A DNA stretch of 33,057 nucleotides, from IMG/VR virus record IMGVR_UViG_2897328257_000006, positions 1 through 33,057 of that record. One strand, given 5' to 3'. The position numbers and the translations under genes were made by a program. Under the pieces are notes generated by a model. That model worked only from the letters and a program-made list of their open reading frames with translations. It ran no database searches and was not told where the DNA came from. Positions 1,447-32,582 of this stretch are shown piece after piece. Source of the stretch: a virus. Taxonomy: Duplodnaviria; Heunggongvirae; Uroviricota; Caudoviricetes. Numbering within the stretch: position 1 is the first letter of the stretch; the number at the start of each line of letters is the position of its first letter.

Positions 1447-1533
1447 GCTGAAAAACATAACCCATAAAATGCTAGCTGTACCAGGAACCACCTCCTTAGC
1501 CTGTGTAATCTCCCTTACACGGGCTTATTTTTT
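1447..1533 (+). ncRNA. cyaR: CyaR (RyeE) Hfq-binding small RNA, 87 nt
   Basis: Sequence GCTGAAAAACATAACCCATAAAATGCTAGCTGTACCAGGAACCACCTCCTTAGCCTGTGTAATCTCCCTTACACGGGCTTATTTTTT matches remembered E. coli CyaR; terminator hairpin (CCTGTGTAA/TTACACGGG) plus T-run at the 3' end; correct position between yegQ and a P2 ogr gene. Confidence 0.85.
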
Positions 1534-1534
1534 A
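1507..1534. repeat. att core copy 1 (host cyaR 3' end / prophage ogr-proximal junction), AATCTCCCTTACACGGGCTTATTTTTTA
   Basis: Exact 28-bp direct repeat of 32555..32582; its reverse complement contains the remembered 27-bp P2 att core AAAAAATAAGCCCGTGTAAGGGAGATT. Confidence 0.9.
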
Positions 1535-1596
1535 CGCGTAATACAATGAAATAAAAGGATTTATTTCTGGTCACGTCCACACATTGACCACATCGA

Positions 1597-1621
1597 CAAA
1601 AAAGCCCCTCGACTGAGGGGC
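1597..1621 (-). terminator. Rho-independent terminator downstream of ogr
   Basis: Stem GCCCCTC/GAGGGGC (1604..1610 and 1615..1621) with 4-nt loop; on the minus strand it is followed by a run of T (complement of A-run 1597..1603), just past the ogr stop. Confidence 0.6.
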
Positions 1622-1634
1622 TTCCTGTATGTAA

Positions 1635-1853
1635 TTACATCCACATAATTTGCTGCCCTGACGGCAACGGGTGCGGTCTTACGGCGTGGACTTCTCCCGG
1701 CTTCACGATGTATCGCTGTACCGACTCATAAGTGATGAACGTGGCGCTGCAATTCACGTTCTGACACTGGTGATAACGCTCTTTTGTCGTGTCAGTGATA
1801 TAGCGGCTTGTACGCGCATGTGCGGCATGCTGGCATAAAGGACAATGAAACAT
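1635..1853 (-). CDS. ogr: Ogr late-gene transcriptional activator (C4 zinc finger), 72 aa
   Basis: MFHCPLCQHAAHARTSRYITDTTKERYHQCQNVNCSATF... matches P2 Ogr; internal ATG at 1853 chosen over the longer track ORF because it is preceded by a GGAAGAGG Shine-Dalgarno sequence and gives the known 72-aa length. Confidence 0.92.
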   Translation of the reverse strand: MFHCPLCQHAAHARTSRYITDTTKERYHQCQNVNCSATFITYESVQRYIVKPGEVHAVRPHPLPSGQQIMWM

Positions 1854-1934
1854 CGCGAGCACCTCTTCCGGTTTTGTTGATGGTGCCATTTTAGTTAATT
1901 TATCCTTATAAAACAAACAGATAAAATAAAAACA

Positions 1935-3098
1935 TCACTCATTATATTCTGTTTCGTACTCCACATCAGAAAGCCTGACCTCAAGCTCCAAGGACGTCGT
2001 GAAGCCGCTATTATTCAGAAAATGTGTCACCTTAGTGATTGTCCAGTCCTGCTCGTCTATGACGCGCTTAAAGCCTGACACTTTAACCGGTGTTTCCGTG
2101 TAAATATCTGCCCGACCGGTAGCCAGGCTGATGGAGAACTCCGCCACACCCCGTTGCAGTTTATCCCACTTCGCCTGAGCGGCGCGCATGGCCTGCGCTT
2201 TCGTGGCATATACCGTAGTCAGGGCAAAAACGTTGTCAGCCTCACCGGCCATGTATTCACCTTCGCGCGCTTCCGGTACTTTTGGCGCTTTCTTCTGCGT
2301 GACCGGTTTTGCTTTCGGGTGCTCCAGTGCGCGCAGGTGTTTTTCTTTCTTTTTGCGTTTCAGTTTTACCTTCTGCTTTTGTGGTTTCGGGTCTTTGGTG
2401 TGTAACCACTTTGCCGTTACGCCGGTGTAAGCTCCACGGTCAGCAATCGCAAAATGATGACGGTCGCCGTCGCTGCGGGTGATGGTAATCTGCGGGATTT
2501 TTTTACCACTGGCCGTCACCCCCTGCCCCGCTTTGAGAAACAGCAGTTTTCCCATTTTTACCGACACCTCGCCGCCGTTACGTTCTGCAAGACGGGTCAG
2601 AAATTTCGCATCAGACTCCTGCGACTGGTCGATGTGCGGGATTTTAATTCCGGCCAGTGACGGAGCGACACTGGCTTCCAGCCTGTTACGGGAGGCTATC
2701 GCCTCAACAATCGCACCGAGCGTGGTGTCATGCCATGAGCCTTCACGGCGGGAATTGAGCGTCCCGCGAAAATCTGCACTCCGGGCGCGGATGGTGACCA
2801 CATCCGGCGCGCCCCGGTGTTCAACCTCATCAACGGTGAATTTCCCTTTGCATACCAGGGCAAAACCTTTCCAGCCGATATACACCGTCAGGACAGCGCC
2901 ACGAACCGGCAGCCCAACCTGCCCGTCGGCATCGTTCAGTTCAATATCAAGCTGGTCAGCCTCAAAGCCCCGGTTATCCGTCAGAGTCATGCTCATCAGA
3001 CGGTCACTGATATTGCCGGTAATATCCCTGCTGTCGAGCATCAGCATGTAATCCGGCGTCAGCGTACTGCCTGCATCAAATGTCAGCGCATCCAGCAT
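1935..3098 (-). CDS. D: Tail protein D (387 aa)
   Basis: 387-aa ORF in the P2 position after ogr; length and N-terminus MLDALTFDAGSTLTPDYMLMLDSRDITG consistent with P2 gpD. Confidence 0.9.
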   Translation of the reverse strand: MLDALTFDAGSTLTPDYMLMLDSRDITGNISDRLMSMTLTDNRGFEADQLDIELNDADGQVGLPVRGAVLTVYIGWKGFALVCKGKFTVDEVEHRGAPDVVTIRARSADFRGTLNSRREGSWHDTTLGAIVEAIASRNRLEASVAPSLAGIKIPHIDQSQESDAKFLTRLAERNGGEVSVKMGKLLFLKAGQGVTASGKKIPQITITRSDGDRHHFAIADRGAYTGVTAKWLHTKDPKPQKQKVKLKRKKKEKHLRALEHPKAKPVTQKKAPKVPEAREGEYMAGEADNVFALTTVYATKAQAMRAAQAKWDKLQRGVAEFSISLATGRADIYTETPVKVSGFKRVIDEQDWTITKVTHFLNNSGFTTSLELEVRLSDVEYETEYNE

Positions 3099-3577
3099 TA
3101 TCCCGCCCCCGTCATACCCGTGAATCTGGTCGCCATACTGCCAGCCTTACCGATGAGCGATTCCGCCTGTTTACCGATATCGCCATAAAGCGCGGCCAGT
3201 GATTCATCAACGCGGGTGAGCGACAGCGTAAAATCAATTTTCCGGGGTGTGCCGTCTGCAAAGAAAATACTCCCTGTTTCACTCACCCTGCTGATGACAT
3301 ACATGCCGTAAATCATGCCGGTGCCATCCAGCAACGGCCACGCCCGGCCTTCCTCTGCCATCAGTCTGAGCGTGGTCATCGTCAGCTTCCCGCCGGTCAG
3401 TTCGGGATAAAGCACGCCGGCAAGCGTGATGTTTTCCTCACCCACACCGAGAAACTGAAAGGCATCCCGTTTACCGATACGGGAATTTGACGGCCAGCGA
3501 TAATCTGATTCACGCTGCATGGTCTGGTGTGGCAGCGTCTGGCGCATAAAAACAAACATACCTAACGCGAGCATCAT
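3098..3577 (-). CDS. U: Tail protein U (159 aa)
   Basis: 159-aa ORF in P2 synteny between T and D; overlaps the D start by one base. Confidence 0.88.
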   Translation of the reverse strand: MMLALGMFVFMRQTLPHQTMQRESDYRWPSNSRIGKRDAFQFLGVGEENITLAGVLYPELTGGKLTMTTLRLMAEEGRAWPLLDGTGMIYGMYVISRVSETGSIFFADGTPRKIDFTLSLTRVDESLAALYGDIGKQAESLIGKAGSMATRFTGMTGAG

Positions 3578-3591
3578 TTTTCGTCACCTCC

Positions 3592-5710
3592 TTAACCGTC
3601 ATGCATCATGCTGGCACGGGCGCGCGCACGTTTATCCCGCTCGTATTTTTCGAGCGCATCCTGTAACTGGCGGTCGAGCTGTGTCCCCGGCGCAGTACCG
3701 CCCGTCAGGCTGATGTGATATTCGTTTTTACTCTGGTCCACATAAGAGCGGCCAGCCGGTGCCGTAACTGGCTGATAAGCCTGATAGCCAGCATAAGAGC
3801 TGGTCGCCGGAATATAACCACCGGTGCCATACGTGGCGGCACGAGTTCTGGCGGCGGTCTGGTCAAGCGTGCCTGACTCTTTGTTGATGACGCCGAGTTT
3901 TTCCAGTACCCAGTCAATACCGCTGCGCAGTTTGTTGAACGCATTAAGCGGCAGCATCAGCGCGTCAGCCAGTGCCTGCCCGAACATGACGCCCGTGTCA
4001 CGGCAACGGTTCAGGGTGTCCTGGGTGGCTTTGACCGGGGCAATCAGGTTTTTAAACCACTGCCACGCGGCCTGTAACTTTTCACCCAGCCAGTCAAACA
4101 CCGGCTTAAGTGGCGTGAACAGCTCCCCCACCGGCGCAAATGCCGCTTTCAGCCCTTCAACCACACCGCCAAAGAATGCGCTGACAGGCTCCCAGTATTT
4201 ACGGATAAGTAACGCCCCGGCGACAATAGCGGCCACCACAGCCACAACCGGCCAGCTAATCGCCCCGATGGCGGTCATAACAGCACTGCCAACCGTCGTG
4301 AAAATTGCCCCCATTGCGCCTGCTGCCGCGATGATGGCATTAATGCCGGTGATAACCGGCCAGGCTACAAGACCAATGGCACCGATGATGCCAGTAAGCG
4401 CCAGTGCGCCACCGACAATGAGGCCGATGGTTGACGCCAGTGATTTGTTTTTCTGTATCCAGCCGTCGAGTTTTAACACATACTTTGTGGCCGTCTGCGT
4501 GAGCTTACGCAGCGCGCCTTCCTGCTGGTCAAACAGGTCAGTCCCCACCGCCTCATAAGCGGACTGAAACTCCTTAAAGTCACCGCCGAGGTTGTCCTGC
4601 ATGATATTTACCAGCTCGGCGGTCTTCCCGTCTGAGGCTTTAAACGCAGCGGTCAGTTTGTCCAGCTTTCCGGTTGAGGCGGCAGTCATCAGCACGGCGG
4701 CGGCTGAGCTGGCCTCCTCACCGAAAATAGTTTTCATGTATTCAGCCTGCTGGGCAGTACCGAGCCGGTTTTTCTCAAAACTGGCCTGCATTTCTTTCAG
4801 AATGGTAAATACTGGTCGGGTATTCCCTTTACTGTCTGAGGTTTTCACGCCAAGCTCTTTCAGTGCATCCCATGCTTTTCCCGTCGGTGCCTGCAGGCGG
4901 CTTAACACGGCACGGCTTCCCGTCCCCGCCATTGAACCGGTAATTTTTGCATCATGCAGTGCCCCGACCATTGCGGCGGTTTCTTCAATGCTGACACCGG
5001 CATTTTTTGCCACAGGTGCGGCATAGGTCAGCGCATCGCTCATGCCATCAAAATCGGCGGCGGTTTTGTTCATCGTCATGGAGAGAACATCCCCGATATG
5101 AGCGACCTTATCGTTTGAAAGCTGAAAGGCGGATTTCATCCCCATCAGCAGGGCGGCGTTTTCTTCCATCGTGCGACGGTTCGCCAGCGCCATATTCAGC
5201 GTGACCGGCGTTGCCGCCTGAATGGCATCAACATCCCCACCGGCTTTCGCAATAATAATCTGCGCACCGGCTGCATCATCTGCCGAGGCTGCGGTATTGT
5301 CGCCGAGCTGGCGCGCCTGCTTGCGTAGCGCGGCCATTTCGGCGGAGTCTTTTGCCACACCGAGCACAGCCTGCAATTCTGAGTTTTTCTGCGCAAACTC
5401 ATAACCGGGCATCAGCAACTTAACTCCGGCCATCGTTCCCGCCGCCGCAATCCCCACACCGGCAGCGCCCACTGAGGCCATATTTCCGGCCAGTTCCTTG
5501 CCTGCCTGATAACGCTGTTTGACTGCGTTAAGTTTTGCCTGTTGTGCACTGACACGCGCCAGTGCGTCACGCTGACGGTTAAGCTGTGCGGTGGTTTCAC
5601 TGATACGGTTTTTCAGTCCCTGCTCATCATGTGCAAGATTGCGGGTATTAATTCCCACAGCGGCCAGTTCCCGCTGCTGGCGTTTAACGGAGTCCGTCAG
5701 GCGGTTATAT
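3592..5710 (-). pseudogene. T: Tape-measure protein T, 5'-truncated (about 704 codons remain; no in-frame start outside the FI overlap)
   Basis: Long ORF with typical tape-measure composition (Ala/Gly-rich, hydrophobic segment IGLIVGGALALTGIIGAIGLVAWPVITGINAIIAAAGAMGA); the first 24 codons of the track ORF overlap FI coding sequence in another frame, and P2 gpT is 815 aa as I recall. Confidence 0.65.
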
Positions 5711-6580
5711 GTAGTTTTCAAAGAGGAACAGCGGGTCATCAGAGCAGGTACGGTTACCCCAGAAGCGGAAACCGTCACGGCGAATCAGCGTTGTGACACC
5801 TGACTCGTTCAACAGGTCAGCATCGGTGCCGGACTCCTGCAAATCCCAGAATACAGAGGCACTGATGCCGGTAACACCGTTTACCCCGACGTTGGACAGC
5901 GTTTTATGCCAGCCCTGCTCCTGGTCGATTTTAGCGCGCAGGCCCAGCGCACGGGCGGTGGCATACGCGGTGGCGGTGGTACTGGCGACCGTATCCCATG
6001 CGAGGAAATCCGGCCAGATGACCATCAGCTCACGCTGGCTGAAATTCTGACGGTAGGCTTTCACCTCGGAAATGGTTTTACAGTCCCATGCGCTGATATA
6101 CCCGAAAGCGCGCAGCTTCTGACAGACTGATGCCAGTGCAACAGCCACCTCTTTGGTGTCCAGTCCCGGCACACCGAGAATGCGAGGTTTAACACCGGTT
6201 ACCGACTCCGCCGCCAGCAGGGCTTTCAGTCCGGTGTACTGACCGTTTTCGTCGGTGGTGCCGATGATATTGGAAACGGTCTGCGCGAGTTTCGTTTCCT
6301 CGTCGTCGCCGGTGCCGTCTTCCACACGCACGACAACGGTGACCGGTTTTGACTGGTCGGCGATAGCCTGCAACGATGCCGCCAGCGTGCCTTTTTTACC
6401 GGCCTTTGCAATTGCGCTTTGCACATTGGTAATCAGCACCGGTTTATTGAGGGGGAAGGTTTCCGCATCCGCATCGCTGGCCGTGCAGACCATGCCGACA
6501 ATGGCAGTGGATACAGTGGAAATGACGCGGGTGCCGTCGTTAATCTCCAGCACCTGCACGCCGTGATGATAGTCACTCAT
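5705..6580 (-). pseudogene. FI: Tail sheath protein FI, 3'-truncated (291 aa versus about 396 aa in P2)
   Basis: N-terminus MSDYHHGVQVLEINDGTRVISTVSTAIVGMV... matches P2 FI; reading frame ends ...LFLFENYI-stop at 5705, where P2 FI continues; good RBS GGAG upstream of the ATG at 6580. Confidence 0.7.
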
Positions 6581-6684
6581 CCGTTTAACTCCGTGGTTAA
6601 TGGGTGCAACTATTTTCTGTTGGGCAGTGCATGAGACGCTATTTGACCTGGCTGGTCAGTGGATGAAACAACAGATAAAGAAAA

Positions 6685-6703
6685 GGCGGGCAATTCGCCC
6701 GCC
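6685..6703. terminator. GC-rich hairpin GGCGGGC-AATT-CGCCCGCC upstream of FI, flanked by an A-run; possible terminator or boundary element
   Basis: Perfect 7/8-bp GC stem with 4-nt loop seen directly; lies between the late tail operon start and the cargo region; function not established. Confidence 0.35.
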
Positions 6704-6798
6704 TGTCCTGATTTGTACTCACTCATTTCCCAACTGGCAACTTACATAGCCAAAACGCTATCAAATCTGACAGTCTGCTTTGAGCGAGAAGCGGAAGT

Positions 6799-7065
6799 AT
6801 GAAACTTGTTCTCACCACCGATGAAGCATTACAAACAATGCAGTTAGTTTATCAACGGGCAGGATCAGGGCGTACTCTCAAGCGGTTTAAGATTGATAAC
6901 CTCAGGTACATTCATCTTGCCACGTTTCATATAGCGTATTTGCGACAGAGTTCATGTGAAGAAACACCGACTACGAGGATGATATTCATGTTGTATTGTT
7001 CGGGAAATCACTTCTTCATATGGAACCCTCATCACACTTACAAAACCATTATTAACATAGCTTAA
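6799..7065 (+). CDS. Hypothetical 88-aa protein (orphan ORF at the edge of the cargo hotspot)
   Basis: Only ORF of 60 aa or more on either strand in 6600..7300; weak RBS-like GGAAG just upstream; no recognisable motif. Confidence 0.25.
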   Translation: MKLVLTTDEALQTMQLVYQRAGSGRTLKRFKIDNLRYIHLATFHIAYLRQSSCEETPTTRMIFMLYCSGNHFFIWNPHHTYKTIINIA

Positions 7066-7079
7066 GTGTTAATCAAAAT

Positions 7080-7305
7080 TGAGCCATTCACATTACATTA
7101 GGTAAGGCATCTTACTAAAAATATTGTAATGTTTTGTTTTTAAAGATAAAGATTTCAGGTTGAAAACCAAAAATTTTTAGTTAAAAATATTTATGGTGTA
7201 TGTAAAAAATGATAAGGTAGTGATAAGACATAAGTTTGTAAAACACATGTTAAATTTCAATGCTGATGAAAAAGCTTAGCGTTAATCAAAACAGGAGCAA
7301 GAAGA
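7080..7305 (+). promoter_or_regulatory. AT-rich putative promoter region for the cargo operon (e.g. TTGAAA at 7160..7165)
   Basis: About 200 bp of very AT-rich sequence immediately upstream of a strong RBS (AGGAG 7293..7297); several -35/-10-like hexamers, none decisive. Confidence 0.4.
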
Positions 7306-8136
7306 TTGAAAGTTATTAGCTTAATCAATATGAAAGGTGGCGTTGGTAAGTCAACATTGGCTACCAATATTGCTAATCATCTTTCAGATAAACTTGGGCA
7401 AAAAATATTATTAATAGATATCGACCCACAATTTAACGCAACGCAATGTGTAATGGATACAAGCAAATATGTTGCACATATGAAAAGCGGAGGCGATAGC
7501 ATATGTGATATTTTTTATAGTTCAAAAATTCGACTATCTACAATGACTGGTCCTTTAGTTAACACACCTAAAGAATTAGCCGATATAACACCAATTCAAT
7601 TAAATGATAATTTTCACATTGTTCCCGGAAGCCTTGGGCTATATAAAATTGAAATGAAACCAGGAGAAGGGATAGAAAACAAGCTTAGACGCTTTCTTAA
7701 AATCCATGAAAATGACTATGATTATGTCATAATTGATACCCCACCAACCCCATCAGTTTGGATGTCCAGCGCATTAATTGCATCTGATTATTACCTCATT
7801 CCAGCCAAACCCGATCCTCTTTCGATCACTGGTATCGATCTATTAGATAGCATTATAAATGAGAAGAGAGAAAATTTCGATCTTAAGATTGAATGTGCGG
7901 GCATAGTTTTTAATATGGTTGAAGGTAATAGTAATTTATATGAGGAAAGTCTTCGTTACTTCAATAATCAAAAACGTTGGCGTAATAAGATCTTTAAATC
8001 ATATTTGAGCAAACGTACTGAGTTGGCAAGAAATCAAACAAGAGGCTTATTTATTAACAATTTAACGGATGAGGATATGAAGTTTTCGCTGTCTAAAATT
8101 ACTGACGAACTTCTCTCTAGAGTAGGTGACTTATGA
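7306..8136 (+). CDS. ParA/MinD/Soj-family P-loop ATPase (276 aa), cargo gene 1
   Basis: Deviant Walker A KGGVGKST near the N-terminus, DIDPQ motif, Walker B-like YVIIDTPP; TTG start preceded by AGGAG at 8-nt spacing; AT-rich relative to the phage backbone. Confidence 0.8.
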   Translation: MKVISLINMKGGVGKSTLATNIANHLSDKLGQKILLIDIDPQFNATQCVMDTSKYVAHMKSGGDSICDIFYSSKIRLSTMTGPLVNTPKELADITPIQLNDNFHIVPGSLGLYKIEMKPGEGIENKLRRFLKIHENDYDYVIIDTPPTPSVWMSSALIASDYYLIPAKPDPLSITGIDLLDSIINEKRENFDLKIECAGIVFNMVEGNSNLYEESLRYFNNQKRWRNKIFKSYLSKRTELARNQTRGLFINNLTDEDMKFSLSKITDELLSRVGDL

Positions 8137-8639
8137 CTGACAAAAAAAATAACTCAAAAGAAATTAAGCAACTGTTAAACTTTTTAGAGGAGTTTTCCTT
8201 TATTTCAAAAAAATTATCAAGAATCAACTTTATTGAATTACTTCAAGATAGTTATACTGATAATTTAGAAGTTAACGAAAGAAATTCAAAGTCCAAAAAA
8301 AATGATATTAAAGGTTTCCTTGTTGGGTATCTTCCGAGGATTTTATTAGACAAAGATCTCTTCCAAAAAAATAAAGATATAGATGATTTTGCACGCATGT
8401 TAGGTATCGAAATCAGCAGGCCTGAAAAAAGATCTAGAGAGGAAATGATCGGCATAATCGTGTGTGACGTTCACGAGAAAAACTCATCCGATTTAGGTAA
8501 GGCTTATAATATTATCAATTCAATGTCAAATAACCCTCAAGTTTTGAGTAGAATAAAAGAGAGGAAGAACCTTTCTAGCGCTCAAAATGAGATATATGAC
8601 TGGAATGAAGTTATAAAAGATATATTCAATAAGGACTAA
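8133..8639 (+). CDS. Hypothetical charged (Lys/Glu/Asn-rich) 168-aa protein, cargo gene 2
   Basis: ATG overlaps the stop of gene 1 (ATGA), preceded by AGGTGA; no motif recognisable by eye. Confidence 0.7.
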   Translation: MTDKKNNSKEIKQLLNFLEEFSFISKKLSRINFIELLQDSYTDNLEVNERNSKSKKNDIKGFLVGYLPRILLDKDLFQKNKDIDDFARMLGIEISRPEKRSREEMIGIIVCDVHEKNSSDLGKAYNIINSMSNNPQVLSRIKERKNLSSAQNEIYDWNEVIKDIFNKD

Positions 8640-8641
8640 CA

Positions 8642-9337
8642 ATGTCGAGAGAAGTAAACAGCGATTTCACTGAGTTAGTTACTTATTTCTCTGAATATAA
8701 ATTAAAAAATGTTTTCGAGAATATTAACTCAAGAGGGAAAATAAGCATGATACATAAGAGATATTATTCTTTTATGTGCCTTGTTTACTGTTTGTATCAT
8801 TTCTCCAAGGAGAAAATAGACGCCAACTCATTGGAGCGATTGCAAGAAGCTTCATCTGACCTTGGTACAGCTATGTTTATGGTTATAAATGGTGCATACA
8901 AACCAGCAAATCTAATGATGCGAAGTTATATTGAAAATTCTTTAAAATCAATCGGTTGCTTACTAGATCCTTCAATACTTGAAGAAAAATCATTGTTTAA
9001 GGTAATTGAACAAACTGGGGAACATCCTGTCTTCAAAAAAAATCCTCTACTACATGAAACTTTAAAAGCTGAATACTCTTCGTTATGCAGTCACGTACAT
9101 ACAGCTACTGTAAAAGAAATGGCTCACATAAAAGCTTTAAATGTTTTTCCCGAAATAGACTTGGTTAAAATAGATAATATTTCGAAGGTGATTGATAAGG
9201 TGGTTAAGACTATGATATCAACTATCATAAGAATTTTTCCTGATGTTTTCTTTTCCTTTGCACCTGAGTATCGAGAAAAAATCCTCCTTAGCTTAACCTC
9301 TGCACAACGAGCCTCACTTCATTCCTTAAGTGATTAA
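8642..9337 (+). CDS. Hypothetical 231-aa protein, cargo gene 3
   Basis: Starts 3 nt after the gene 2 stop with AAGGA RBS; same AT-rich composition; no motif recognisable by eye. Confidence 0.7.
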   Translation: MSREVNSDFTELVTYFSEYKLKNVFENINSRGKISMIHKRYYSFMCLVYCLYHFSKEKIDANSLERLQEASSDLGTAMFMVINGAYKPANLMMRSYIENSLKSIGCLLDPSILEEKSLFKVIEQTGEHPVFKKNPLLHETLKAEYSSLCSHVHTATVKEMAHIKALNVFPEIDLVKIDNISKVIDKVVKTMISTIIRIFPDVFFSFAPEYREKILLSLTSAQRASLHSLSD

Positions 9338-9354
9338 CTAACAAGTATGACATA

Positions 9355-9380
9355 AAAACTATCCTATTGTGATAGTTTTT
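9355..9380 (+). terminator. Weak AT-rich hairpin plus T-run downstream of cargo gene 3
   Basis: AAAACTATC-CTATTGT-GATAGTTTT inverted repeat followed by T; stem is AT-rich, so strength is uncertain. Confidence 0.4.
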
Positions 9381-9618
9381 ATGTTCATTAAGATGACTAT
9401 ATCAGGAATTATTGCCGAATTTTAATTTTCATATTGATTTTACTATCTCTCACCAACTCTTGTAAGTATCCTTCCGCCACAAGCGGACCATGTGCATTTA
9501 AATATCTGACCTAACGTGCCGTAACGCCGCAATGTCCGCTTCTGGCACAGAGCGGACTGTCAGATTAGGCTTTACTCTGTGCCATAGATATGTAAGCTCC
9601 CACTAGAGTTCATACAAG

Positions 9619-10146
9619 TTATTGCGGCATTTCCGGCCATTCAGGATTTGCAGGATCCACACGACTGACCAGAACGCTGTAGCGCTCCCATCTTTCCAGT
9701 CGGCTACGCTCCTCATCTGTTGCCATATTCAGCCTGACAGCACGCTCTAGCGGCAAAATCACGGATTCAGCATCTGCAAGAAGTCTGGCTTTCCTGTTTT
9801 CTGCCTGCTGTTGCAATTCCTCTGCCGTATAAATTCGTTTGATCACTGTGCCATCCTTAAACATCCAGTTCCCTGAAATGTCCGCCCGTCGATTAGCAGT
9901 AATATCCGGCACTTCAACAACACTTAATCCATCTGGTCTGATAGCTGTCACATCCTTTTCCACATAGCGGATAATATTATCTTTGTCGTACGCTATTTTT
10001 ATCGTGTCATCAGCAAAATACTTTTGTTCTTCGTACCAGTTCTTACCATCTTCTGAAAAAAACCAGACAACATCAAAGTCCTTTGTCAATTGATATTGTT
10101 CAACCGTTTTTGGATTACCTGCCGTTATATTTATCAAATGCTGCAT
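9619..10146 (-). CDS. G: Tail fibre assembly protein G (175 aa)
   Basis: 175-aa ORF directly downstream of H, as in P2; C-terminal ...[27 protein letters not shown] is typical of the tail-fibre chaperone family. Confidence 0.88.
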
Positions 10147-10149
10147 AAA

Positions 10150-12044
10150 TTATACCTGCGCCACGTTGTACCACGTCCCGTTAATGTATTTCTGAACCGG
10201 TCTGTAATATACGCCACCAATGTTATCGGCAGAGTTTGAGCCGGTATCCTGAACAATAATGCCGGTATATACACACCCGGACGGTGCCTGATGTGTCCAT
10301 GTCATGCCATTGTTCGCAGGTTTGTATGTGGCGGCACCACCAAGCCGGATATCCCGGACATAGCGGGAGTCAAAATTGCTGAAATTTGATGGTATCACCT
10401 GCCCGGTAACCCGTAGTGCATCAGACTTAAGCGTCATCAGGTCTTTTGTTGTGCTGCCAGACCTGATGCGCCATTTAAAATATTCATTGCCATTATCACC
10501 AGTTTCAAACCACATGTATGAGTCAGAATCAGCATCTGAATCATTTTTAAATCCAATTTTCGCCCAGTCAGTGTTTCTTTCCCAAATCAGGAAGGCATCA
10601 TTGATAAATTTTATGCTGCCTGACATGCTTCCGCCTGATAATGCCAGAGCAAGAATATCCGCAGGTGTTGGCTTTCGTGATGTTGTATAAAACTCAGACC
10701 AGTCAGCCTCAAATCCATACCCATCACGTGCCGACCTGTAAAAAATCCCCCTGTTTTTATAATCCACAAGAAACTGCATTGCCGGACAACTTCCCTCACC
10801 CGTGTAAAAATGCAGCACCATTTTTGATGCTCCGCCATCCTGTGCACAATAAGCACCACTATCCCAGTTCCATCCTACCGCTTTATTATTTGCAACCGTA
10901 TTTCCTGTTTTCCCTAATGCAAAAGCCGGTTGCTTATTTTTCGTATTGTAGTCGCGTCGCCAGCCCGGCGCATAATCAGCTCCGTGATTGATATACGTGA
11001 ATTGCGCACTGGTGGTACCACCACCGCTTGATGTACTCGGAGTGGTCACACGAATGGTCATTGCAGCTTTAACGCCCATAACCTCAATCACGCAACCTGC
11101 AAGATGAATAGTCCCACAGTCAGTATCGGTAATAATTTTGTTATTACCGTATGACCAGGAACACTTGCACATCCAGTAGGGATGATTAAAGGCTCCCTGA
11201 GACTCTAGCCAGTCAATAAACTGAGCGGTTGTCCAGTTTCCGGCTTCAGTGCTCAAAGCACCGCTATAAGCACGACAGGCACCGATATTTTTCGTGAAAG
11301 TATCCTTTCCCGGAATATCCGCACCGTTCTGATCTTTCTGAAGACGTTTTTCAGCATTGTCATAGGCAGACTTCACCGCTTTTGGTGTTGCAGCCAGCGT
11401 TTCAGAATCGCTGTTGATNNNNNNNNNNNGTTAGCAAGGTCATACGCGGCCTTTACCGCTTTTGGTGTTGCGGCGAACGTTTCAGACGTGCTGTTGGTCG
11501 CACTGCTTAACTGAGTAAAACCTTTGGCGGTCAGCGAGGCGTCAGGGTGACGTCGTGACTGTTCATGTTCTGCAATTTTGTCATCAACGTAATCCTGCGT
11601 TGCCATCACCGTTGTGGTGTCAATGGTCAGCTCCACTGAGGCCACACTGCTGACGATGATGACCATGCGGCAGGTCTGCGAACGCCCTGAGCCTTCGGCA
11701 AGGGCTGGCTTATAACTTTCGGCCATGTTCGCCACGGCAATTAGCGTTCCCGCATCATCGTACAGGCCAAGTTCACGCATCCAGAAACCGCCCACCTCCG
11801 GCGGAATAACCAGCTCTGCGATAATATAATTACTGTTTCGTTTGTCCTGGCTGATTTTGTTCAGCGCATGTCGCCAGACTTCGTGGATAAGCCCGGTCTG
11901 TCCGGCATCCGGGACAGGCAATTTACCACCGCCATCCCCGACGGCCATCGTGGTAATGTTGACCTTCCGCCCTCCCGGTGCGGTTGCCGCTGCCAGCTTT
12001 GCTGCACCGGCAGTGGTGATAACGGTTCTGAATTTTGTGCTCAT
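10150..12044 (-). CDS. H: Tail fibre protein H, interrupted by an 11-N assembly gap at 11419..11429
   Basis: Two ORF segments (11373..12044 and 10150..11376) carry tail-fibre repeat motifs (TPKAVKAAYDLA / KSAYDNAEKRL) on either side of the N-run; combined length is close to P2 gpH (669 aa). Confidence 0.8.
11419..11429. other. Assembly gap (run of N)
   Basis: 11 consecutive N characters in the sequence. Confidence 0.99.
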
Positions 12045-12054
12045 TATTCCTCAC

Positions 12055-13486: not shown

Positions 13487-13490
13487 GGTT

Positions 13491-18747: not shown

Positions 18748-18750
18748 CGG

Positions 18751-19824: not shown

Positions 19825-19882
19825 AGTTTTTCCTGAAATTAAGGGTTAATCGTGAAGGTTTTCCCGGACTGACTGACACCGG

Positions 19883-23905: not shown

Positions 23906-24022
23906 CGCCCGCTTAATGGGGCGGTTTTAATGCGGGTGCATAACCACTTCTTACCCACATCAATTCTGGTCAAGCCAAGCAGTACAACTTATGATTTCAA
24001 GATGCAAACTCATGCAGCAATG

Positions 24023-25216
24023 TTAAATTCTGCATCCATCGGTTTGAAAATGTGATCCGTTTTTCGAATTCAAACTCAACTCTGTTTGACTCTTTTGAAC
24101 ATTAATAGTTTTACCAGTAAGGACATCCAAAACCCCTGCAGCAACAGCCTGCGCCAATTTACAAGGCACAGCATTCCCTATCTGACGCCAAATTGACGAA
24201 TTTTTCCCCACAAAGACATAATTACTCGGGAATGTTTGAATCAAAAGAGCCTCATCTATCGTTAGTCGACGTAAACGACTAGGTACATCGTGCATATCTT
24301 TTGGCTCACCACCATTCATTAGATGATTATGATAAGTCTCAACATAACTTGTTGAGCCATCATAAAGGTGTTCTTCATCAATAATTGGTGTCCTATTCCC
24401 CCCCATAGAAGCAGCTATAGTTGAAGCATACCCATTCGGGTTAATTGGTCTTCCCTGCCCGTTAAACATCATTCCCGCGTAAGGTGACTTCCGTAATACT
24501 GGCTTAGCAGCATTTGTAATCCTTGCATTACAGACTCTTGAATTGTTTGGATTACCCGCTCGCCCTAAAGGCCGAATAATCTCACCAACTGTGGGCGAAA
24601 GATATTGGTATTTTTTTATCGCCACCTCAACTCGTTTCACATCATTTTCGGAACGAAACCCTATAAAAAACATACGTTCCCTATTCTGAGGAACGCCAAA
24701 ATCTTTAGAATTCAGCACCAGCAAGGCTGAACGATAGCCTGACTTTTCAGCCATCTTAAACAGTTCACACCTAACTGGTTCAAATTTGGACAACTGTGCT
24801 AAAGCCTTAACATTCTCCATAACAAAGCATTCTGGTTGAATTATATCCACCGCCCGCATGAATGACATAACCAGCTTACTACGTGGATCATGAGCGTCCA
24901 TTTTCCCTGCCACAGAAAATCCTTGGCATGGAGGCCCACCAAAAACACAACCTATATTTTTCAGCCCAGACAATTCACTTAGCATCTCATCAATATCACC
25001 ACAAAAAACAGGTGATTCATGATTAAGCTTAAATGTATCACATGCATCCTTATCTATATCATTGGCCCAAACTGTTCGGAACCCGGCATTAGAGAAACCG
25101 ACATCCATCCCTCCTGCCCCAGTAAATAAGCTCACCGCTGAAATTTTGTTCACTTCTTTAGCACCAATTATTCGATTTTGGAATAAAACCAATGATAGGT
25201 AAGGATCGACACACAA
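24023..25216 (-). CDS. DNA (cytosine-5) methyltransferase of a type II R-M system; probable true start GTG at 25153 (376 aa)
   Basis: m5C-MTase motifs seen in order: FTGAGG (I), PPCQGFS (IV), ENV (VI), QNRER (VIII), GNAVP (X). The track ORF uses a TTG that overlaps the divergent controller ORF; the GTG at 25153 gives MNKISAVSLFTGAGG. Confidence 0.85.
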   Translation of the reverse strand: MCVDPYLSLVLFQNRIIGAKEVNKISAVSLFTGAGGMDVGFSNAGFRTVWANDIDKDACDTFKLNHESPVFCGDIDEMLSELSGLKNIGCVFGGPPCQGFSVAGKMDAHDPRSKLVMSFMRAVDIIQPECFVMENVKALAQLSKFEPVRCELFKMAEKSGYRSALLVLNSKDFGVPQNRERMFFIGFRSENDVKRVEVAIKKYQYLSPTVGEIIRPLGRAGNPNNSRVCNARITNAAKPVLRKSPYAGMMFNGQGRPINPNGYASTIAASMGGNRTPIIDEEHLYDGSTSYVETYHNHLMNGGEPKDMHDVPSRLRRLTIDEALLIQTFPSNYVFVGKNSSIWRQIGNAVPCKLAQAVAAGVLDVLTGKTINVQKSQTELSLNSKNGSHFQTDGCRI

Positions 25217-25506
25217 TCAATCACCTTCTAAACCACATGGCAAAACGACAACCAACTATACATGATCATAGATACAGGTGCCTAGTCCAGCTTCTCACCA
25301 AACTACGCAAAGAAGCTTCTCTTTCGCAGTCAGAATTGGCCATTTTTCTAGGATTATCACAATCAGATATATCTAAAATCGAAAGCTTTGAAAGGCGATT
25401 AGATGCTTTAGAACTATTTGAATTATTAGAGGTGGTTGCAAGCCGATTAGGTCTACCAATGGATATCTTACTAAAGGACACCTATGAAAGTATTAGTAAA
25501 TCATGA
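25192..25506 (+). CDS. Controller (C) protein, XRE-type helix-turn-helix regulator (89-104 aa depending on start)
   Basis: HTH-like segment LSQSELAIFLGLSQSDISKIE; divergent from the MTase and overlapping the start of the downstream endonuclease ORF, the usual C-R arrangement. Alternative start ATG at 25237. Confidence 0.65.
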   Translation: MIGKDRHTINHLLNHMAKRQPTIHDHRYRCLVQLLTKLRKEASLSQSELAIFLGLSQSDISKIESFERRLDALELFELLEVVASRLGLPMDILLKDTYESISKS

Positions 25507-26539
25507 GCAAGCCTATAATGTAATTATAAATGCAATCAACGATGCAAAAAAATTAACTGATTACAAAACAAATAATCAATGGGTCTCCATTCAAAATGTA
25601 ATTTTAGGCACCCACCTTACATACAGATATATACTTATTACTGGTTTACTTGCTAAAGCAACAGACCCTAGAGTAAACCCTCTGGCTTTACAAGCTAATG
25701 CCCCCGTAGACGGAGCCTATGATGCAAGAAGTTTATGTCATTCGGTAATAGTAGGCAAAGTAGAAGGCCCATTTTTAGAGGGTAAGTTAGGCGCATCAAA
25801 TGAGCCATTTCTAAATAAACCAGCTCGTTACATGCTCCACTCCTCTGATAACCCTGTGCGCAGAGGAAATGATAAGGTTTTACAACAACTTTCAATTGAT
25901 ATATTACATGCAGCAACAACCCAAATCTTAGCTTATGAAATGCTTGTTATTGCATTATATTTTACCCTACAGCGAACCAATAGAGTTATAACGCCGAACT
26001 CAATTAATTTTGATTTCCATAAGATTATTTATAATATTATATCTCATCCTTGTGATGGAGAAACATGCGCGATTGCTGCCGCAATTTCGTTACACTTATT
26101 AGGTGAACAAAGAGGATGGATAATAAAAGCACATCCCGTCAATCAGGCCGGTAGCTCCTCAAAAGAGATACTGGACATAGATGTATATCATGATGATATA
26201 GTTTTCCTTTCTATAGAAGTGAAAGACAAACCATTTAATTATCAAGATGTTAATCACGCCGTTTCAAAAGCATCTGCATCCGGGATTTCAAAAGTTATCT
26301 TCCTTAAAGGGCCAAGAGCAACAAACTTAGATATTGATGAGTCTATTGCGATTGAGAACGCTGCGACAAAAGGTGTTTCACTAAGCTTTAGTGACGTCAT
26401 GACATTCACAACAACATGTTATGCGTTATCGCCACTATTAAGTAATGACAGAATAATAGATTTCATAAATAACACTTTAAAAGACATCAGAGCTAAAGAT
26501 AGCACTATAGAATACATACAATCCATATTTAAAAATTAA
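25484..26539 (+). CDS. Putative type II restriction endonuclease (351 aa)
   Basis: Position downstream of and overlapping the C gene, opposite the MTase; candidate PD-(D/E)xK-like element in DIDVYHDDIVFLSIEVKDK; AAGGA RBS; AT-rich. Enzymatic identity is inferred from context, not proven. Confidence 0.6.
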   Translation: MKVLVNHEQAYNVIINAINDAKKLTDYKTNNQWVSIQNVILGTHLTYRYILITGLLAKATDPRVNPLALQANAPVDGAYDARSLCHSVIVGKVEGPFLEGKLGASNEPFLNKPARYMLHSSDNPVRRGNDKVLQQLSIDILHAATTQILAYEMLVIALYFTLQRTNRVITPNSINFDFHKIIYNIISHPCDGETCAIAAAISLHLLGEQRGWIIKAHPVNQAGSSSKEILDIDVYHDDIVFLSIEVKDKPFNYQDVNHAVSKASASGISKVIFLKGPRATNLDIDESIAIENAATKGVSLSFSDVMTFTTTCYALSPLLSNDRIIDFINNTLKDIRAKDSTIEYIQSIFKN

Positions 26540-26546
26540 TACTCCC

Positions 26547-26581
26547 GGGACAATATAGTTCACAACTACGTTGTCCCTTTT
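26547..26581 (+). terminator. Hairpin GGGACAA/TTGTCCC plus TTTT downstream of the putative endonuclease gene
   Basis: 7-bp stem with 17-nt loop followed by a T-run, in the convergent gap between the endonuclease and A genes. Confidence 0.45.
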
Positions 26582-26632
26582 AAAACAGTCAAGCAATTGC
26601 ATTATATTAATTATTTACTTTTTATCACAATC

Positions 26633-28945
26633 TCATAATTCATACGCTCTCCAATCACATATAACAGGATAACTGAAGCTTCTCCCGTCGTAATTTACAG
26701 TTGCCCCACGCGCCAGCGCCTCAAGCTCCCATCGCTGCGGCCTGATACCGTTCTGAGCAAGATCAACGCGGATACGGGTAATTTGCATTCTTTCCGACCG
26801 GGTCAGTCTGGCCGATGGTGCAATTTCATGAGGTTTTAACGGGCTTCCGTTTCTTTGCTGACGACTTGGCGTTCTCCGACCGTGTTTTAATGCACCTCTG
26901 AGCGCCCTCACGACCTCCGGGTCACTCCATTCGATAACACCGTCATCAACCAGATTAAGCACTGCTGCGGCGTGCTCAGAAGGTGTGGGAGCCGGTAACA
27001 AAGTATCACCACCGGTGAGTTTTCCACACTTATTGACAGGACTCCGAGGCGCGGCGATGCCGCTTTTTAAAGTCAAAGGCTCAACGACCGGAACTTTCGG
27101 CACAATGCGCCAGTCCGTCGTTCTGGTGATATGAATATGACGCGCGCCGAGATGCGGCGCGTAAATGCCGACCACTCTCTCGACTTCTTCCTCATACTCG
27201 TTAACGTCATCCGACGGGCTACGGGCAACCCTGACAGTCTGACAATCGCGCGGGACATTTGCCCCACCCTGCGCGCTGATATACAACGCAAAATCACCAC
27301 TGTCTGCGGCAGCGCGAGCAGCCTCGACGCGTTCGTCAAACTCATCCGCAATACTGACGCCGCGAGGCAATTTGCGTAGTTCACGGTAAGCCCCCATTGT
27401 CGGCAGTCCAACCGTTTTAAATTGCGGGATGCGCCACGTTGACGCCCATGCGGTAACAGCCGCCGCAGTATCTTTCAGCGGTCTGCCGGTATCGTTATCG
27501 AGCTGACCATCCAGTGCATAGCCGTCGATATTTTTTGAAATGTATTTCGCGATATATCCCGCAGCACCGCCCCGGTTAAGGTGTTTTGCCTGAAAACGGT
27601 TTCGCGCGGCTCCTCTTTCGTCGCCATCCTCTTTGAGCGCATAGCGACGCATGATTTCGATAATCTGGTTACGCTGGCGTGGATTACAAAAAAGCATCAT
27701 ATGCCAGTGCGGCGTTCCGTCGTGGTGTGGCTCGACGACTCGCAAACCGTAGACCTGTAAATCATTATCCTTGAATGCCGTGCGCATCAGGCTCCAGATA
27801 CGGCAGAGATAACGCTGCGCATCCTTTGGATTAAATGCCTCATCATTCCAGCCGTGATTAAGCTGGACGGTTTTATTTTCGCCTTTTCCAACCTGACGTG
27901 TCGGGTGATACTTTGACGGCGCGGTAAGCGTGATAAACATCCCCACATCACCCTCTGAGGCGGCGTAACGCTCAATACCGGCAATGGTGTTCATCAGCTC
28001 CATCCGGCGAATTTCAGGATTAGAAATACTGCCCATCACCTTACTGATAAGGTCGATGCGCTCGCCGGTTTCCCTGTTTTCAAGGTCACACGATTTAAGA
28101 AATTCCAGATTTGCCTGGCGGCGCGCACGCTCATCACGAATGGCATGTTTACTGGCATAAGGAGAACGGTCTTTATTCACCTCCCCGACAGCAATCAGTA
28201 ACGCCTCATGCCAGCGCATACGCTGGCCTTTAAGCTGATGAGTCCACCACTCATCGTTAAACAGACGGGCAATGGCAGAATATGCCTGCCTCGTGGTCAT
28301 CTGTCCTTTACGGTATTTTTTCCAGTAGAGAGGGGAAATATTGAAAGCACGTGCAGCGCCAGCAACATGACCATAGAGGTGAGCCTGCGCCTCATCCGTA
28401 AACAGCGATTCTTTCTCGCCATGCGCATCCACCCAGGCATCGCAGAGTTCCTCATACATCATGAAAAGCTGTGATGAGATACGGGCGGCAAACTTTTTCA
28501 GCTCCTTGTCATTCATCCCCGGCAGGCGCGCATACTGGTCGCGCTCTGCCAGAAACAGCAACGACGCGTCGGTGTTCATTTCATGGCGCTGATTCACACG
28601 CTCAATGCGCGGCCATAAACGACGCTGAAAAGTGGATGTGAGGAAATAAAACCCGTGCACCGGGCTTTTATTGCGCCGGATGTAGTCATAGCGTGAAGTA
28701 AACAGCGAGCGCAAAAAGTAAGGCAGGCGGTTAATCGTGGATAAAACACCTTGCACCTGACGCATCTCGTCACGTGTAAGGGGTCTTTCGCGCCCGACGG
28801 CCTCGCGTGGCGCGTTCCATGCATAAGCACCGGTAAACGCCTTACCGGTGCCTGCAGCAAATGCTGACGGAGGGACAAAACGCCCGGAGGCTTTAACGGC
28901 CATATGAGCCAAAAGCCTCTGAACAACGCCTGCTGAGTTGCTCAA
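26633..28945 (-). CDS. A: Replication initiation protein A (rolling-circle nickase; about 756-770 aa)
   Basis: Large ORF in the P2 A position and of P2 gpA size; start may be the internal ATG at 28903 (MAVKASGRF...). Confidence 0.88.
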   Translation of the reverse strand: MSNSAGVVQRLLAHMAVKASGRFVPPSAFAAGTGKAFTGAYAWNAPREAVGRERPLTRDEMRQVQGVLSTINRLPYFLRSLFTSRYDYIRRNKSPVHGFYFLTSTFQRRLWPRIERVNQRHEMNTDASLLFLAERDQYARLPGMNDKELKKFAARISSQLFMMYEELCDAWVDAHGEKESLFTDEAQAHLYGHVAGAARAFNISPLYWKKYRKGQMTTRQAYSAIARLFNDEWWTHQLKGQRMRWHEALLIAVGEVNKDRSPYASKHAIRDERARRQANLEFLKSCDLENRETGERIDLISKVMGSISNPEIRRMELMNTIAGIERYAASEGDVGMFITLTAPSKYHPTRQVGKGENKTVQLNHGWNDEAFNPKDAQRYLCRIWSLMRTAFKDNDLQVYGLRVVEPHHDGTPHWHMMLFCNPRQRNQIIEIMRRYALKEDGDERGAARNRFQAKHLNRGGAAGYIAKYISKNIDGYALDGQLDNDTGRPLKDTAAAVTAWASTWRIPQFKTVGLPTMGAYRELRKLPRGVSIADEFDERVEAARAAADSGDFALYISAQGGANVPRDCQTVRVARSPSDDVNEYEEEVERVVGIYAPHLGARHIHITRTTDWRIVPKVPVVEPLTLKSGIAAPRSPVNKCGKLTGGDTLLPAPTPSEHAAAVLNLVDDGVIEWSDPEVVRALRGALKHGRRTPSRQQRNGSPLKPHEIAPSARLTRSERMQITRIRVDLAQNGIRPQRWELEALARGATVNYDGRSFSYPVICDWRAYEL

Positions 28946-30932: not shown

Positions 30933-31013
30933 GTCGTCCTCCAGCCCTCATGAATTGCGTTTAATGCCTTATAATGCCTTTTAGTGCACACATCCAAGCA
31001 CTAAACAATCTAC

Positions 31014-31043
31014 ATCTAAACTAAATACTATTGAGATCTAAAC
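31014..31043. promoter_or_regulatory. Immunity operator: two 8-bp direct repeats ATCTAAAC (31014..31021 and 31036..31043), 22 bp centre to centre
   Basis: Repeats seen directly in the cox-C intergenic region beside the C start; P2 C repressor is known to bind two direct repeats flanking the early promoter -10; the exact site sequence is not confirmed from memory. Confidence 0.55.
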
Positions 31044-31046
31044 ACC

Positions 31047-31346
31047 ATGTCAAACACGATAAGCGAGAAGATAGTCTTAATGCGAAAATCAGAGTATTTG
31101 AGCAGACAACAACTTGCTGATTTAACAGGGGTTCCGTATGGCACGCTGAGTTACTATGAAAGTGGTCGTTCAACACCTCCAACAGATGTCATGATGAACA
31201 TCCTGCAGACCCCACAATTCACCAAATACACTTTATGGTTCATGACCAATCAGATCGCTCCTGAGTCCGGGCAAATTGCGCCCGCTCTCGCACACTTTGG
31301 GCAAAACGAAACAACGTCGCCCCACTCCGGTCAAAAGACTGGTTAA
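31047..31346 (+). CDS. C: Immunity repressor C (99 aa)
   Basis: MSNTISEKIVLMRKSEYLSRQQLADLTGVPYGTLSYYESGRSTPP... matches the P2 C repressor and its 99-aa length. Confidence 0.92.
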   Translation: MSNTISEKIVLMRKSEYLSRQQLADLTGVPYGTLSYYESGRSTPPTDVMMNILQTPQFTKYTLWFMTNQIAPESGQIAPALAHFGQNETTSPHSGQKTG

Positions 31347-31461
31347 CAATTCATCGTGAATATATTCATCACAAGTGCCTACTATTGGTGGCTAAATTTC
31401 AGCCACCACGAAAAAAGCGATTAGTAGTCGCCAAAAAACACACCACTCGGAGGGTTTTCTG

Positions 31462-32475
31462 ATGGCAATCAAAAAACTCGATGATGGTCGATATGAAGTG
31501 GACATCCGCCCTACTGGACGTAATGGAAAACGCATCCGTAGGAAGTTTGATAAGAAAAGCGAAGCTGTCGCTTTCGAGAAATACACGTTGTACAACCACC
31601 ACAATAAAGAATGGCTATCAAAACCAACAGACAAGCGACGTCTGTCGGAGCTGACACAGATCTGGTGGGATTTAAAGGGTAAACACGAAGAGCATGGGAA
31701 ATCTAATCTTGGAAAAATTGAAATCTTCACAAAAATAACGAATGACCCATGCGCATTTCAAATTACGAAATCGCTTATCAGCCAGTACTGCGCCACCCGA
31801 AGAAGTCAGGGTATTAAACCTTCGAGTATCAATCGTGATTTAACATGTATTAGCGGCATGTTTACAGCCCTGATTGAAGCGGAGTTATTCTTTGGTGAGC
31901 ACCCTATCAGAGGGACAAAAAGGCTTAAGGAGGAAAAACCAGACACAGGCTATCTCACGCAGGAAGAAATTGCCTTACTGCTTGCTGCTCTTGACGGCGA
32001 CAATAAAAAGATTGCGATTCTTTGCCTGAGTACTGGAGCAGGTTGGGGAGAAGCAGCTCGTTTGAAAGCAGAAAATATCATCCATAACCGCGTCACGTTT
32101 GTTAAAACGAAAACAAACAAACCACGCACCGTCCCGATCTCAGAGGCTGTTGCCAAAATGATCGCGGATAACAAACGAGGTTTTTTATTCCCTGATGCTG
32201 ATTACCCTCGCTTCAGACGAACAATGAAAGCAATAAAACCGGATTTGCCAATGGGGCAAGCCACACATGCACTAAGGCACAGCTTTGCCACTCATTTCAT
32301 GATTAATGGAGGAAGTATTATCACGCTACAACGGATACTAGGTCACACGCGGATTGAACAAACTATGGTTTACGCTCATTTTGCGCCAGAGTACCTTCAG
32401 GACGCCATTTCTCTTAATCCGCTAAGAGGTGGTACTGAGGCCGAGAGTGTCCACACAGTGTCCACAGTAGAGTAA
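31462..32475 (+). CDS. int: Tyrosine integrase (337 aa)
   Basis: MAIKKLDDGRYEVDIRPTGRNGKRIRRKF... with C-terminal catalytic region HALRHSFATHF...LGHTRIEQTMVYAHF (R..HxxR..Y); 337 aa as in P2 Int; 3' end 80 bp from the att core. Confidence 0.95.
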   Translation: MAIKKLDDGRYEVDIRPTGRNGKRIRRKFDKKSEAVAFEKYTLYNHHNKEWLSKPTDKRRLSELTQIWWDLKGKHEEHGKSNLGKIEIFTKITNDPCAFQITKSLISQYCATRRSQGIKPSSINRDLTCISGMFTALIEAELFFGEHPIRGTKRLKEEKPDTGYLTQEEIALLLAALDGDNKKIAILCLSTGAGWGEAARLKAENIIHNRVTFVKTKTNKPRTVPISEAVAKMIADNKRGFLFPDADYPRFRRTMKAIKPDLPMGQATHALRHSFATHFMINGGSIITLQRILGHTRIEQTMVYAHFAPEYLQDAISLNPLRGGTEAESVHTVSTVE

Positions 32476-32554
32476 CGTTTAAGGGCTTTCAGTGGTAATT
32501 TATGCCGCTCAAACCCGCATTGTACCGTTGAAAGCCCCTACTGGTGACACCCTA

Positions 32555-32582
32555 AATCTCCCTTACACGGGCTTATTTTTTA
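32555..32582. repeat. att core copy 2 (prophage int-proximal junction / host flank)
   Basis: Exact 28-bp repeat of 1507..1534. Confidence 0.9.

Follow-up and report, generated by a model that had tools for sequence, protein, structure and literature searches.

Rousset et al. 2022 (PMC9122126) defined hotspots of antiviral systems in P2 and P4 elements, and Moura de Sousa et al. 2026 (PMC13586616) have already reported P2 elements that are defective but have conserved their defence genes, in a survey in which the question of domestication was left open. The DNA analysed here, called the window throughout, is the whole 33,057-nucleotide stretch of the IMG/VR virus record IMGVR_UViG_2897328257_000006, and the element within it is a P2-type (Peduovirus) prophage in an Escherichia coli chromosome that carries a ParA cassette at the Z/fun hotspot (cargo 1), a SacI-family restriction-modification operon at the gpA-gpQ hotspot (cargo 2) and a deletion in the tail operon. 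A first-pass annotation of the window had interpreted this combination as a possible domesticated defence island. Our analysis showed that the defective prophage has been passed on vertically in a young clonal lineage, and ordinary early prophage decay, with domestication undemonstrated, is in our judgement the probable explanation.

Phage P2 (AF063097; Peduovirus P2) has the same gene order as the window element and an identical cos site and attP core, whereas the window has lost the C-terminus of FI, all of FII and E/E+E', and the N-terminus of T, is divergent in G and the H C-terminus, and encodes an integrase (Int) with an R194G substitution. Gene integrity was assessed by translating every annotated P2 gene (AF063097) and searching the proteins against the window with tblastn, which located 37 P2 proteins in the expected order and orientation, with synteny at the nucleotide level too. 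The tail operon deletion was confirmed as a single event in which 1656 bp are absent, window position 5710 joining P2 position 20179 to 18522 with ~1 bp of microhomology at the junction. FI is cut at residue 290 of 396 by a stop codon that arises at the junction, T retains residues 107–815 of 815 with its first 106 codons gone, and no trace of FII, E or E+E' was found in the window with the P2 proteins. FI, FII, E and T are labelled essential tail proteins in AF063097 and, because the four lost or truncated genes are essential in P2, the sequence together with P2 genetics predicts that no tails, and hence no infectious particles, can form. As a correction to the first-pass annotation, orf30 and orf91 are missing besides the deleted tail genes; the same protein search did not find fun(Z), tin or old as such in the window, these being absent or replaced. 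The features at the deletion are as follows.

5710–5711: deletion junction (FI 3' end, FII, E/E+E', T 5' end)
3592–5710, minus strand: T', tape-measure remnant (a 715-aa open reading frame in related assemblies)
5705–6580, minus strand: FI', truncated sheath gene ending ...FENYI* (a pseudogene in the annotation of the complete E. coli genome S19-141)

A 301-bp junction probe was fully covered in one of 5,426 complete E. coli genomes, that of S19-141 (NZ_CP075640.1), isolated from human stool in Zurich, in which the PGAP annotation calls a truncated sheath pseudogene. The window and S19-141 differ over 33 kb by 12 substitutions and one indel and are therefore independent assemblies. The comparison with related E. 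coli genomes that the first-pass annotation had asked for thus returned the same junction in S19-141 and in seven further loci, the junction 40-mer (window 5691–5730) being identical in all eight related loci checked and located at the same chromosomal site. The exact 291-aa FI' protein is recorded on 42 contigs, and those inspected came from DRR, ERR and SRR runs and always adjoined trhP/parDE/baeRS. Alleles specific to the lineage gave a similar picture, as that of h168, the 168-aa gene of cargo 1, was indexed in 117 blocks and that of the cargo 2 endonuclease in 126 blocks, and all 24 contigs inspected for each allele held this prophage with T truncated (715 or 709 aa). Most related copies are protein-identical across each prophage half; the lineage is young and nearly clonal, and the deletion is fixed in one lineage. 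The first-pass annotation had also named an assembly artefact at the deletion as a counter-case; on that reading the prophage would in truth be intact, and the draft state of the window assembly, with its run of Ns in H, speaks for it. There are no Ns at the junction, however, and the same junction occurs in the complete genome CP075640.1 and in the seven further related loci, whose assemblies came from different pipelines, so that we reject an artefact as the cause of the deletion and regard its probability as negligible.

Similarity to P2 is interrupted twice, from 6798 to 9531 in the Z/fun hotspot (GC ~0.32) and from 23933 to 26664 in the tin/old, or gpA-gpQ, hotspot (GC 0.36–0.41), while backbone GC is 0.55–0.60. 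These breaks in homology, with low GC at each, bear out the earlier view that foreign modules occupy both P2 cargo hotspots. Of the two modules, only the restriction-modification operon is a recognised defence system, the ParA cassette corresponding to no known one in PADLOC.

6799–9530, plus strand: cargo 1
7306–8136, plus strand: parA (AAA_31, PF13614; CbiA, PF01656)
8133–8639, plus strand: 168-aa gene (h168)
8642–9337, plus strand: 231-aa gene (h231), HEPN-like fold
9350–9384: terminator-like hairpin
23934–26663: cargo 2, type II restriction-modification operon (same annotation in S19-141)
24023–25216, minus strand: C5 methyltransferase (PF00145, 225 bits)
25192–25506, plus strand: controller helix-turn-helix (HTH) gene
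25484–26539, plus strand: SacI-family endonuclease (PF09566, 258 bits; PADLOC REase_II 830 bits, 351/351)

Cargo 2 is, as judged from its genes, a complete type II restriction-modification operon, with adjacent full-length genes that matched PADLOC MTase_II and REase_II over nearly the whole profiles. It shares with SacI-type systems the full-length PF09566 and PF00145 domains and a small HTH gene overlapping the endonuclease start, and its recognition site is presumably GAGCTC, which we assume from the SacI family name alone. The same SacI-type operon (99.0% identical) lies in the same hotspot of a P2-like prophage of UTAK-3 (NZ_CP157160.1), which has the same integration site and a backbone 96–97% identical; the UTAK-3 prophage differs in its complete tail operon (FI 1191 bp, FII, E, E', T 2448 bp), is annotated as intact, and carries other cargo at Z/fun. 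The IMG/VR contig L042 holds the ParA cassette in a second P2-like backbone with orf30 and other G/H alleles, the contig ending inside FI. Because an intact-annotated prophage has the same operon and a second backbone has the ParA cassette, the cargo is a legacy of the active phage, and the restriction-modification system, at any rate, is older than the defect. Intact relatives with the same cargo, which the first-pass annotation had named as the counter-case to domestication, were not encountered in the data searched: no intact prophage with both cargos was present in the 5,426 complete E. coli genomes, where the next-best genome after S19-141 covers 86% of the both-cargo query and S19-141 alone has the ParA cassette beside FI, and neither cargo was present in 50,697 deposited phage genomes.

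Changes that followed the deletion were traced by comparing related loci. Three private lesions were identified, namely Q66* in H of S19-141, a 1-bp frameshift in replication gene B of GCA_043556435.1 (window position 30126), and Int R194G, which is private to this window, P2 and six other related copies having R. Residue R194 lies within the box I motif TGARWGEA (TGxRxxE) and aligns with the R of TGARWSEA in the HP1 integrase (1aih), which by our own residue count would be the catalytic Arg207. The R-K-H-R-H-Y residues of a competent tyrosine integrase would thus be incomplete, with the box I arginine replaced, and R194G should block excision of this copy if the base call is correct; as a further correction to the first-pass annotation, int is therefore predicted not to be functionally intact. 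An apparent split of H in the window proved to be an assembly gap, in which 11 Ns at 11419–11429 stand for 195 bp of a 44-codon tandem repeat; the repeat reads through in S19-141 and in related draft assemblies, where H is an open reading frame of 692 or 736 aa with differing repeat copy number, and we accordingly rejected the idea that H is another damaged tail gene of the window. The ogr -10 hexamer TAAAAT is one A shorter in S19-141, L007, L009 and L011 (L002 about 27196), which could weaken late-gene activation. Finally, GCA_001645225.1 (L013/L016) and L012 contain long tracts of 2–3% divergence, mostly synonymous, at window positions 1764–5194 and 12469–22982, separated by an unchanged block (5194–12469) that contains the junction, cargo 1, G and H. 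These tracts indicate homologous exchange with other P2-like genomes in which the deletion was left unrepaired.

9619–10146, minus strand: tail-fibre gene G
10150–12044, minus strand: tail-fibre gene H, broken only by the 11-N gap
31462–32475, plus strand: int with R194G (G at 32041)
1887–1893: ogr -10 element TAAAAT, intact in the window

The history that we propose for this element begins with a P2-type temperate phage that would have integrated at the cyaR/yegQ-yegR site and, while active, would have carried the SacI-family operon at gpA-gpQ and the ParA cassette at Z/fun. One illegitimate recombination would then have removed the 1656 bp encoding the sheath C-terminus, the tube protein, the chaperones E/E+E' and the tape-measure N-terminus, after which, as the related loci show, the defective prophage was inherited vertically and has been gathering private lesions at random. 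The cargo genes are probably expressed from the prophage, by analogy with P2 old, tin and fun(Z), and unmethylated DNA entering the cell would be cut by the restriction-modification system, which would also make its own loss lethal. Type II restriction-modification systems self-stabilise through post-segregational killing, and since loss of the system would be lethal, retention of immunity and cargo would need no special selection. The substitution counts below are of isolated changes outside the recombination tracts, as seen in the related loci compared; two of the three look-ups behind them used exact cargo proteins as the key, and loci with identical proteins were collapsed into one.

Cargo genes: 0 non-synonymous, 3 synonymous (8953, 24320, 26467), 0 disruptive
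T' remnant: 3 non-synonymous, 0 synonymous, 0 disruptive
Remaining phage genes: 5 non-synonymous (Int R194G counted), 8 synonymous, 2 disruptive

The scatter of private lesions over the phage genes fits neutral decay, and given a lineage this young and nearly identical, intact neighbouring genes are what would be expected under neutrality. Domestication would instead require host selection for the protection against phages conferred by the repressor, the restriction-modification system and the ParA cassette. In the concept of the domesticated defective prophage, said to go back to Bobay et al. in 2014, the genes retained after inactivation reportedly come under purifying selection. The fixation of the deletion in a lineage sampled from three sequence archives and the lack of an intact relative in the data searched would agree with domestication, and these parts of the first-pass interpretation stand. 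So would the cargo genes, which are intact in every related assembly inspected with their three substitutions all synonymous, and the disruptive private lesions, all of which fall in phage genes. These patterns have no statistical power, however, as the cargo makes up about 4.6 kb of about 29 kb coding sequence and the chance that all three lesions (H Q66*, B frameshift, Int R194G) miss it is ~0.6, and the lineage compared is nearly clonal. Loss of host-killing functions (lysis, replication, excision), a mark of domestication, was not observed: no damage is seen in Y, K, lysABC, A, B or ogr, the genes behind the holin, endolysin, spanins, gpA, gpB and Ogr, only Int being altered in the window, and the deletion therefore ends transmission without lowering the risk to the host. 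Self-stabilisation of the restriction-modification system accounts for retention with no need for a benefit to the host, no known defence system resembles the ParA cassette, and h168 of the lineage has the change L136Q where nearly all aligned homologues have a hydrophobic residue. The host-benefit step thus remained unsupported, with no positive evidence of selection, and we regard domestication as unlikely.

Several points nevertheless weigh against ordinary decay. That all three cargo substitutions are synonymous hints at purifying selection, with n = 3 and some of them perhaps imported by recombination; the deletion outlasted contact with other P2-like genomes without being repaired, a persistence through backbone recombination that would also suit domestication; for the ParA cassette, arrival before the deletion is the presumed order, since the data searched held no intact relative that carries both cargos; and Int R194G is one base in a draft assembly, where a base-calling error is possible. 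A further explanation, compatible with decay, is that the defective prophage acts as a recombination reservoir from which cargo and other segments are rescued into viable P2-like phages or exchanged with islands; heteroimmune P2-like phages, whether co-resident or superinfecting, could supply tails in trans. The mostly synonymous tracts of 2–3% divergence in GCA_001645225.1 and L012 are in keeping with such exchange, as are the intact cos site and terminase, portal, capsid, replication and lysis genes, and the finding of the ParA cassette, at least 99.8% identical, in CP4-like islands and lambdoid remnants as well as in the second P2-like backbone, the limits of the shared sequence lying inside the hotspot repeat. 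Nonetheless, S19-141 has one match to the FI/T junction query and so no second closely related tail operon, and R194G should block excision in this window; a reservoir role is accordingly a tentative possibility, and decay followed by vertical inheritance remains our preferred explanation.

The cassette of cargo 1 encodes a ParA/MinD-type ATPase with the deviant Walker A motif KGGVGKS, followed by the 168-aa and 231-aa proteins, neither of which has a match in Pfam, NCBIfam or PADLOC and each of which matches a PHROGs family of unknown function over its full length. Among curated defence systems (PADLOC) the cassette gave only a 37-residue P-loop match of ParA to PDC-M28B. The 231-aa protein has the four helices of the HEPN fold and invariant residues R94, E98, N99 and H153, and a catalytic Rx4-6H was not found in it, there being no R 4–6 residues before the conserved H. 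At h168 codon 136 (8538–8540) the lineage encodes Q and the common allele (P0048, 445 contigs) L, the position being hydrophobic in nearly all aligned homologues. Promoter scans of the cargo regions showed no enrichment over shuffled sequence.

The three cassette genes occur at >=99.5% identity in 133 of the 5,426 complete genomes, and the copies examined there outside the lineage were all in non-P2 settings. These included CP4-like islands, in which the cassette precedes yeeP-flu and often has a type I restriction-modification system as its neighbour, with DarTG too in one island, and lambdoid remnants near Q, RusA and Hok. A 64%-identical version with the same gene order lies directly after rep on 5.9-kb mobilisable gut-metagenome plasmids (L020–L025), which also encode MobC/relaxase and CcdAB; a 42%-identical version lies in the lambdoid prophage L026 (6706–8693) between a P-like replication gene and RusA/Q, and a homologue of the 231-aa protein (35% identity) is found on a 5.8-kb Plesiomonas plasmid. 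The KGGVGKS Walker A motif, the AAA_31/CbiA domains and the position of the 64% version after a plasmid rep gene are shared with ParA/Soj plasmid partition modules. A ParABS system would combine the ATPase with a centromere-binding ParB and a parS site, and neither a ParB nor a centromere was recognisable in the cassette; its third gene is HEPN-like, and it also occupies islands and integrated phages, which have no use for partition. Both the HEPN-like fold and the places where the cassette is found make a conflict function (anti-phage or anti-plasmid) plausible, the alternative being a role in plasmid stability.

A 32-nt imperfect inverted repeat brackets cargo 1, and P2-backbone homology ends exactly at its inner edges.

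6764–6795: left arm, core TCCGCT-N10-AGCRGAC
9535–9566: right arm, inverted repeat

The motif is palindromic, of about 23–27 nt, with the consensus GTCCGCT-YCTSGCWCANAG-CRGAC, and the same arms flank fun(Z) in P2 and the differing cargo of UTAK-3. Wherever the ParA cassette occurs outside P2, its similarity to the window begins within the left arm (6767–6781) and stops within the right arm or slightly beyond it (9557–9590), and the core motif also bounds other, neighbouring cassettes in those CP4-like islands and lambdoid remnants. The first gene of the UTAK-3 cargo is bounded likewise where it is found in unrelated islands. Copies of the motif were located in L030 (12422–12453, about 13446–13468, 15133–15164), L054 (7008–7029, 8022–8043, 11234–11255) and L045 (4642–4663, 7403–7424, 11076–11097), against a chance expectation of ~0.03 matches per window. 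A scan of one genome per species returned at least 120 stretches with the motif, mostly from Enterobacterales and some from Alphaproteobacteria, and the motif lay almost always outside P2 prophages, a P2 gene being present at 2 of the 80 motif loci retrieved, among the matches listed. No Rfam family corresponds to the boundary motif, a literature search by its sequence gave nothing relevant, and no convincing inverted repeats were seen in a search around cargo 2. The mechanism of cargo exchange was left unexplained by the 2026 P2/P4 survey (PMC13586616), and the motif may supply short homology, or act as a recombination site, for the exchange of cargo between P2 hotspots and elements unrelated to P2, which we put forward as a lead and not as a result. 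The linked readings, that cassettes bounded by the motif are exchanged and that four kinds of mobile element carry, in the ParA cassette, a system against phages or plasmids that has yet to be described, are speculative when taken together, and we would sooner doubt than expect both.

The limits given to the prophage by the first-pass annotation (1507–32582) coincide with the ends of a 28-bp exact direct repeat, AATCTCCCTTACACGGGCTTATTTTTTA, which is found at both prophage ends and equals the P2 attP core. The prophage is flanked by trhP/yegQ (1–1362) on one side and yegR (32740–33057) on the other. The 3' end of the cyaR small RNA (sRNA) gene overlaps attL, where the P2 att core re-creates the cyaR 3' terminator. 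Backbone segments are 93–99% identical to P2 AF063097 in nucleotide sequence, the variable G/H region excluded, C and Cox are 100% identical and Int 99.4%. Full length without stops were Q, P, O, N, M, L, X, Y, K, lysA, lysB, lysC, R, S, V, W, J and I, and likewise G, U, D, ogr, int, C, cox, orf78, B, orf80-83 and A, so that the immunity, replication, capsid, packaging and lysis genes are intact, as the first-pass annotation had it. Many complete E. coli records, NZ_CP075640.1 and others with P2 about 22 kb from the record start among them, begin inside P2 gene A, which is probably an artefact of a post-assembly rotation step. The remaining features of the window are as follows.

1445–1530, plus strand: cyaR (ryeE) sRNA gene (Rfam RF00112, 100.7 bits, E 3e-19)
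1507–1534, no strand: attL core, exact repeat of 32555–32582 and match to the P2 attP core
1635–1853, minus strand: ogr, late-gene activator, 100% identical to P2 Ogr
1935–3098 and 3098–3577, minus strand: tail genes D and U, full length, 98–100% identical to P2
12055–15449, minus strand: I, J, W, V, S, R (baseplate and tail completion), full length, 95–99% identical to P2
15412–17188, minus strand: lysC, lysB, lysA, K (endolysin), Y (holin), all full length
17192–23717: tail gene X; L, M, N, O (minus strand) and P, Q (plus strand), head/packaging; full length, 97–100% identical to P2
23887–23905: cos site, exact 19-nt match to P2
26633–30932, minus strand: early genes A, orf83-orf80, B, orf78, cox, full length, 95–100% identical to P2
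31047–31346, plus strand: C, immunity repressor, 100% identical to P2 C
32555–32582, no strand: attR core, second copy of the 28-bp repeat

In comparison with described elements, the cryptic P2 remnant of K-12 (ogrK-yegZ, by yegQ/cyaR) presumably occupies the same attachment site with only ogr and a D fragment left, whereas 31 kb remain in the window, and we take K-12 to represent the end state of the same decay path. The ogr gene of S19-141 is annotated as ogrK. New insight is likeliest to come from the boundary motif and from the mobile ParA cassette. As a whole, the element is one more documented case of a known pattern, that of cargo-loaded P2 hotspots and of defective P2 keeping defence genes. 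With the hotspots described previously (PMC9122126; PMC13586616) it shares cargo sites at gpA-gpQ and among the tail genes, low GC, cargo swapped between similar phages, and near-identical cargo copies in other mobile elements and cryptic islands. It differs from those cases in that its ParA cassette is not among the recognised systems, and in that the element is one deletion from intact and can be traced in its lineage. Its value is that of a dated natural experiment, in which a single inactivating event is traceable in over 40 assemblies and was followed by private lesions in int, H and B, and a larger population sample could test selection on cargo after phage death, the question left open in PMC13586616.

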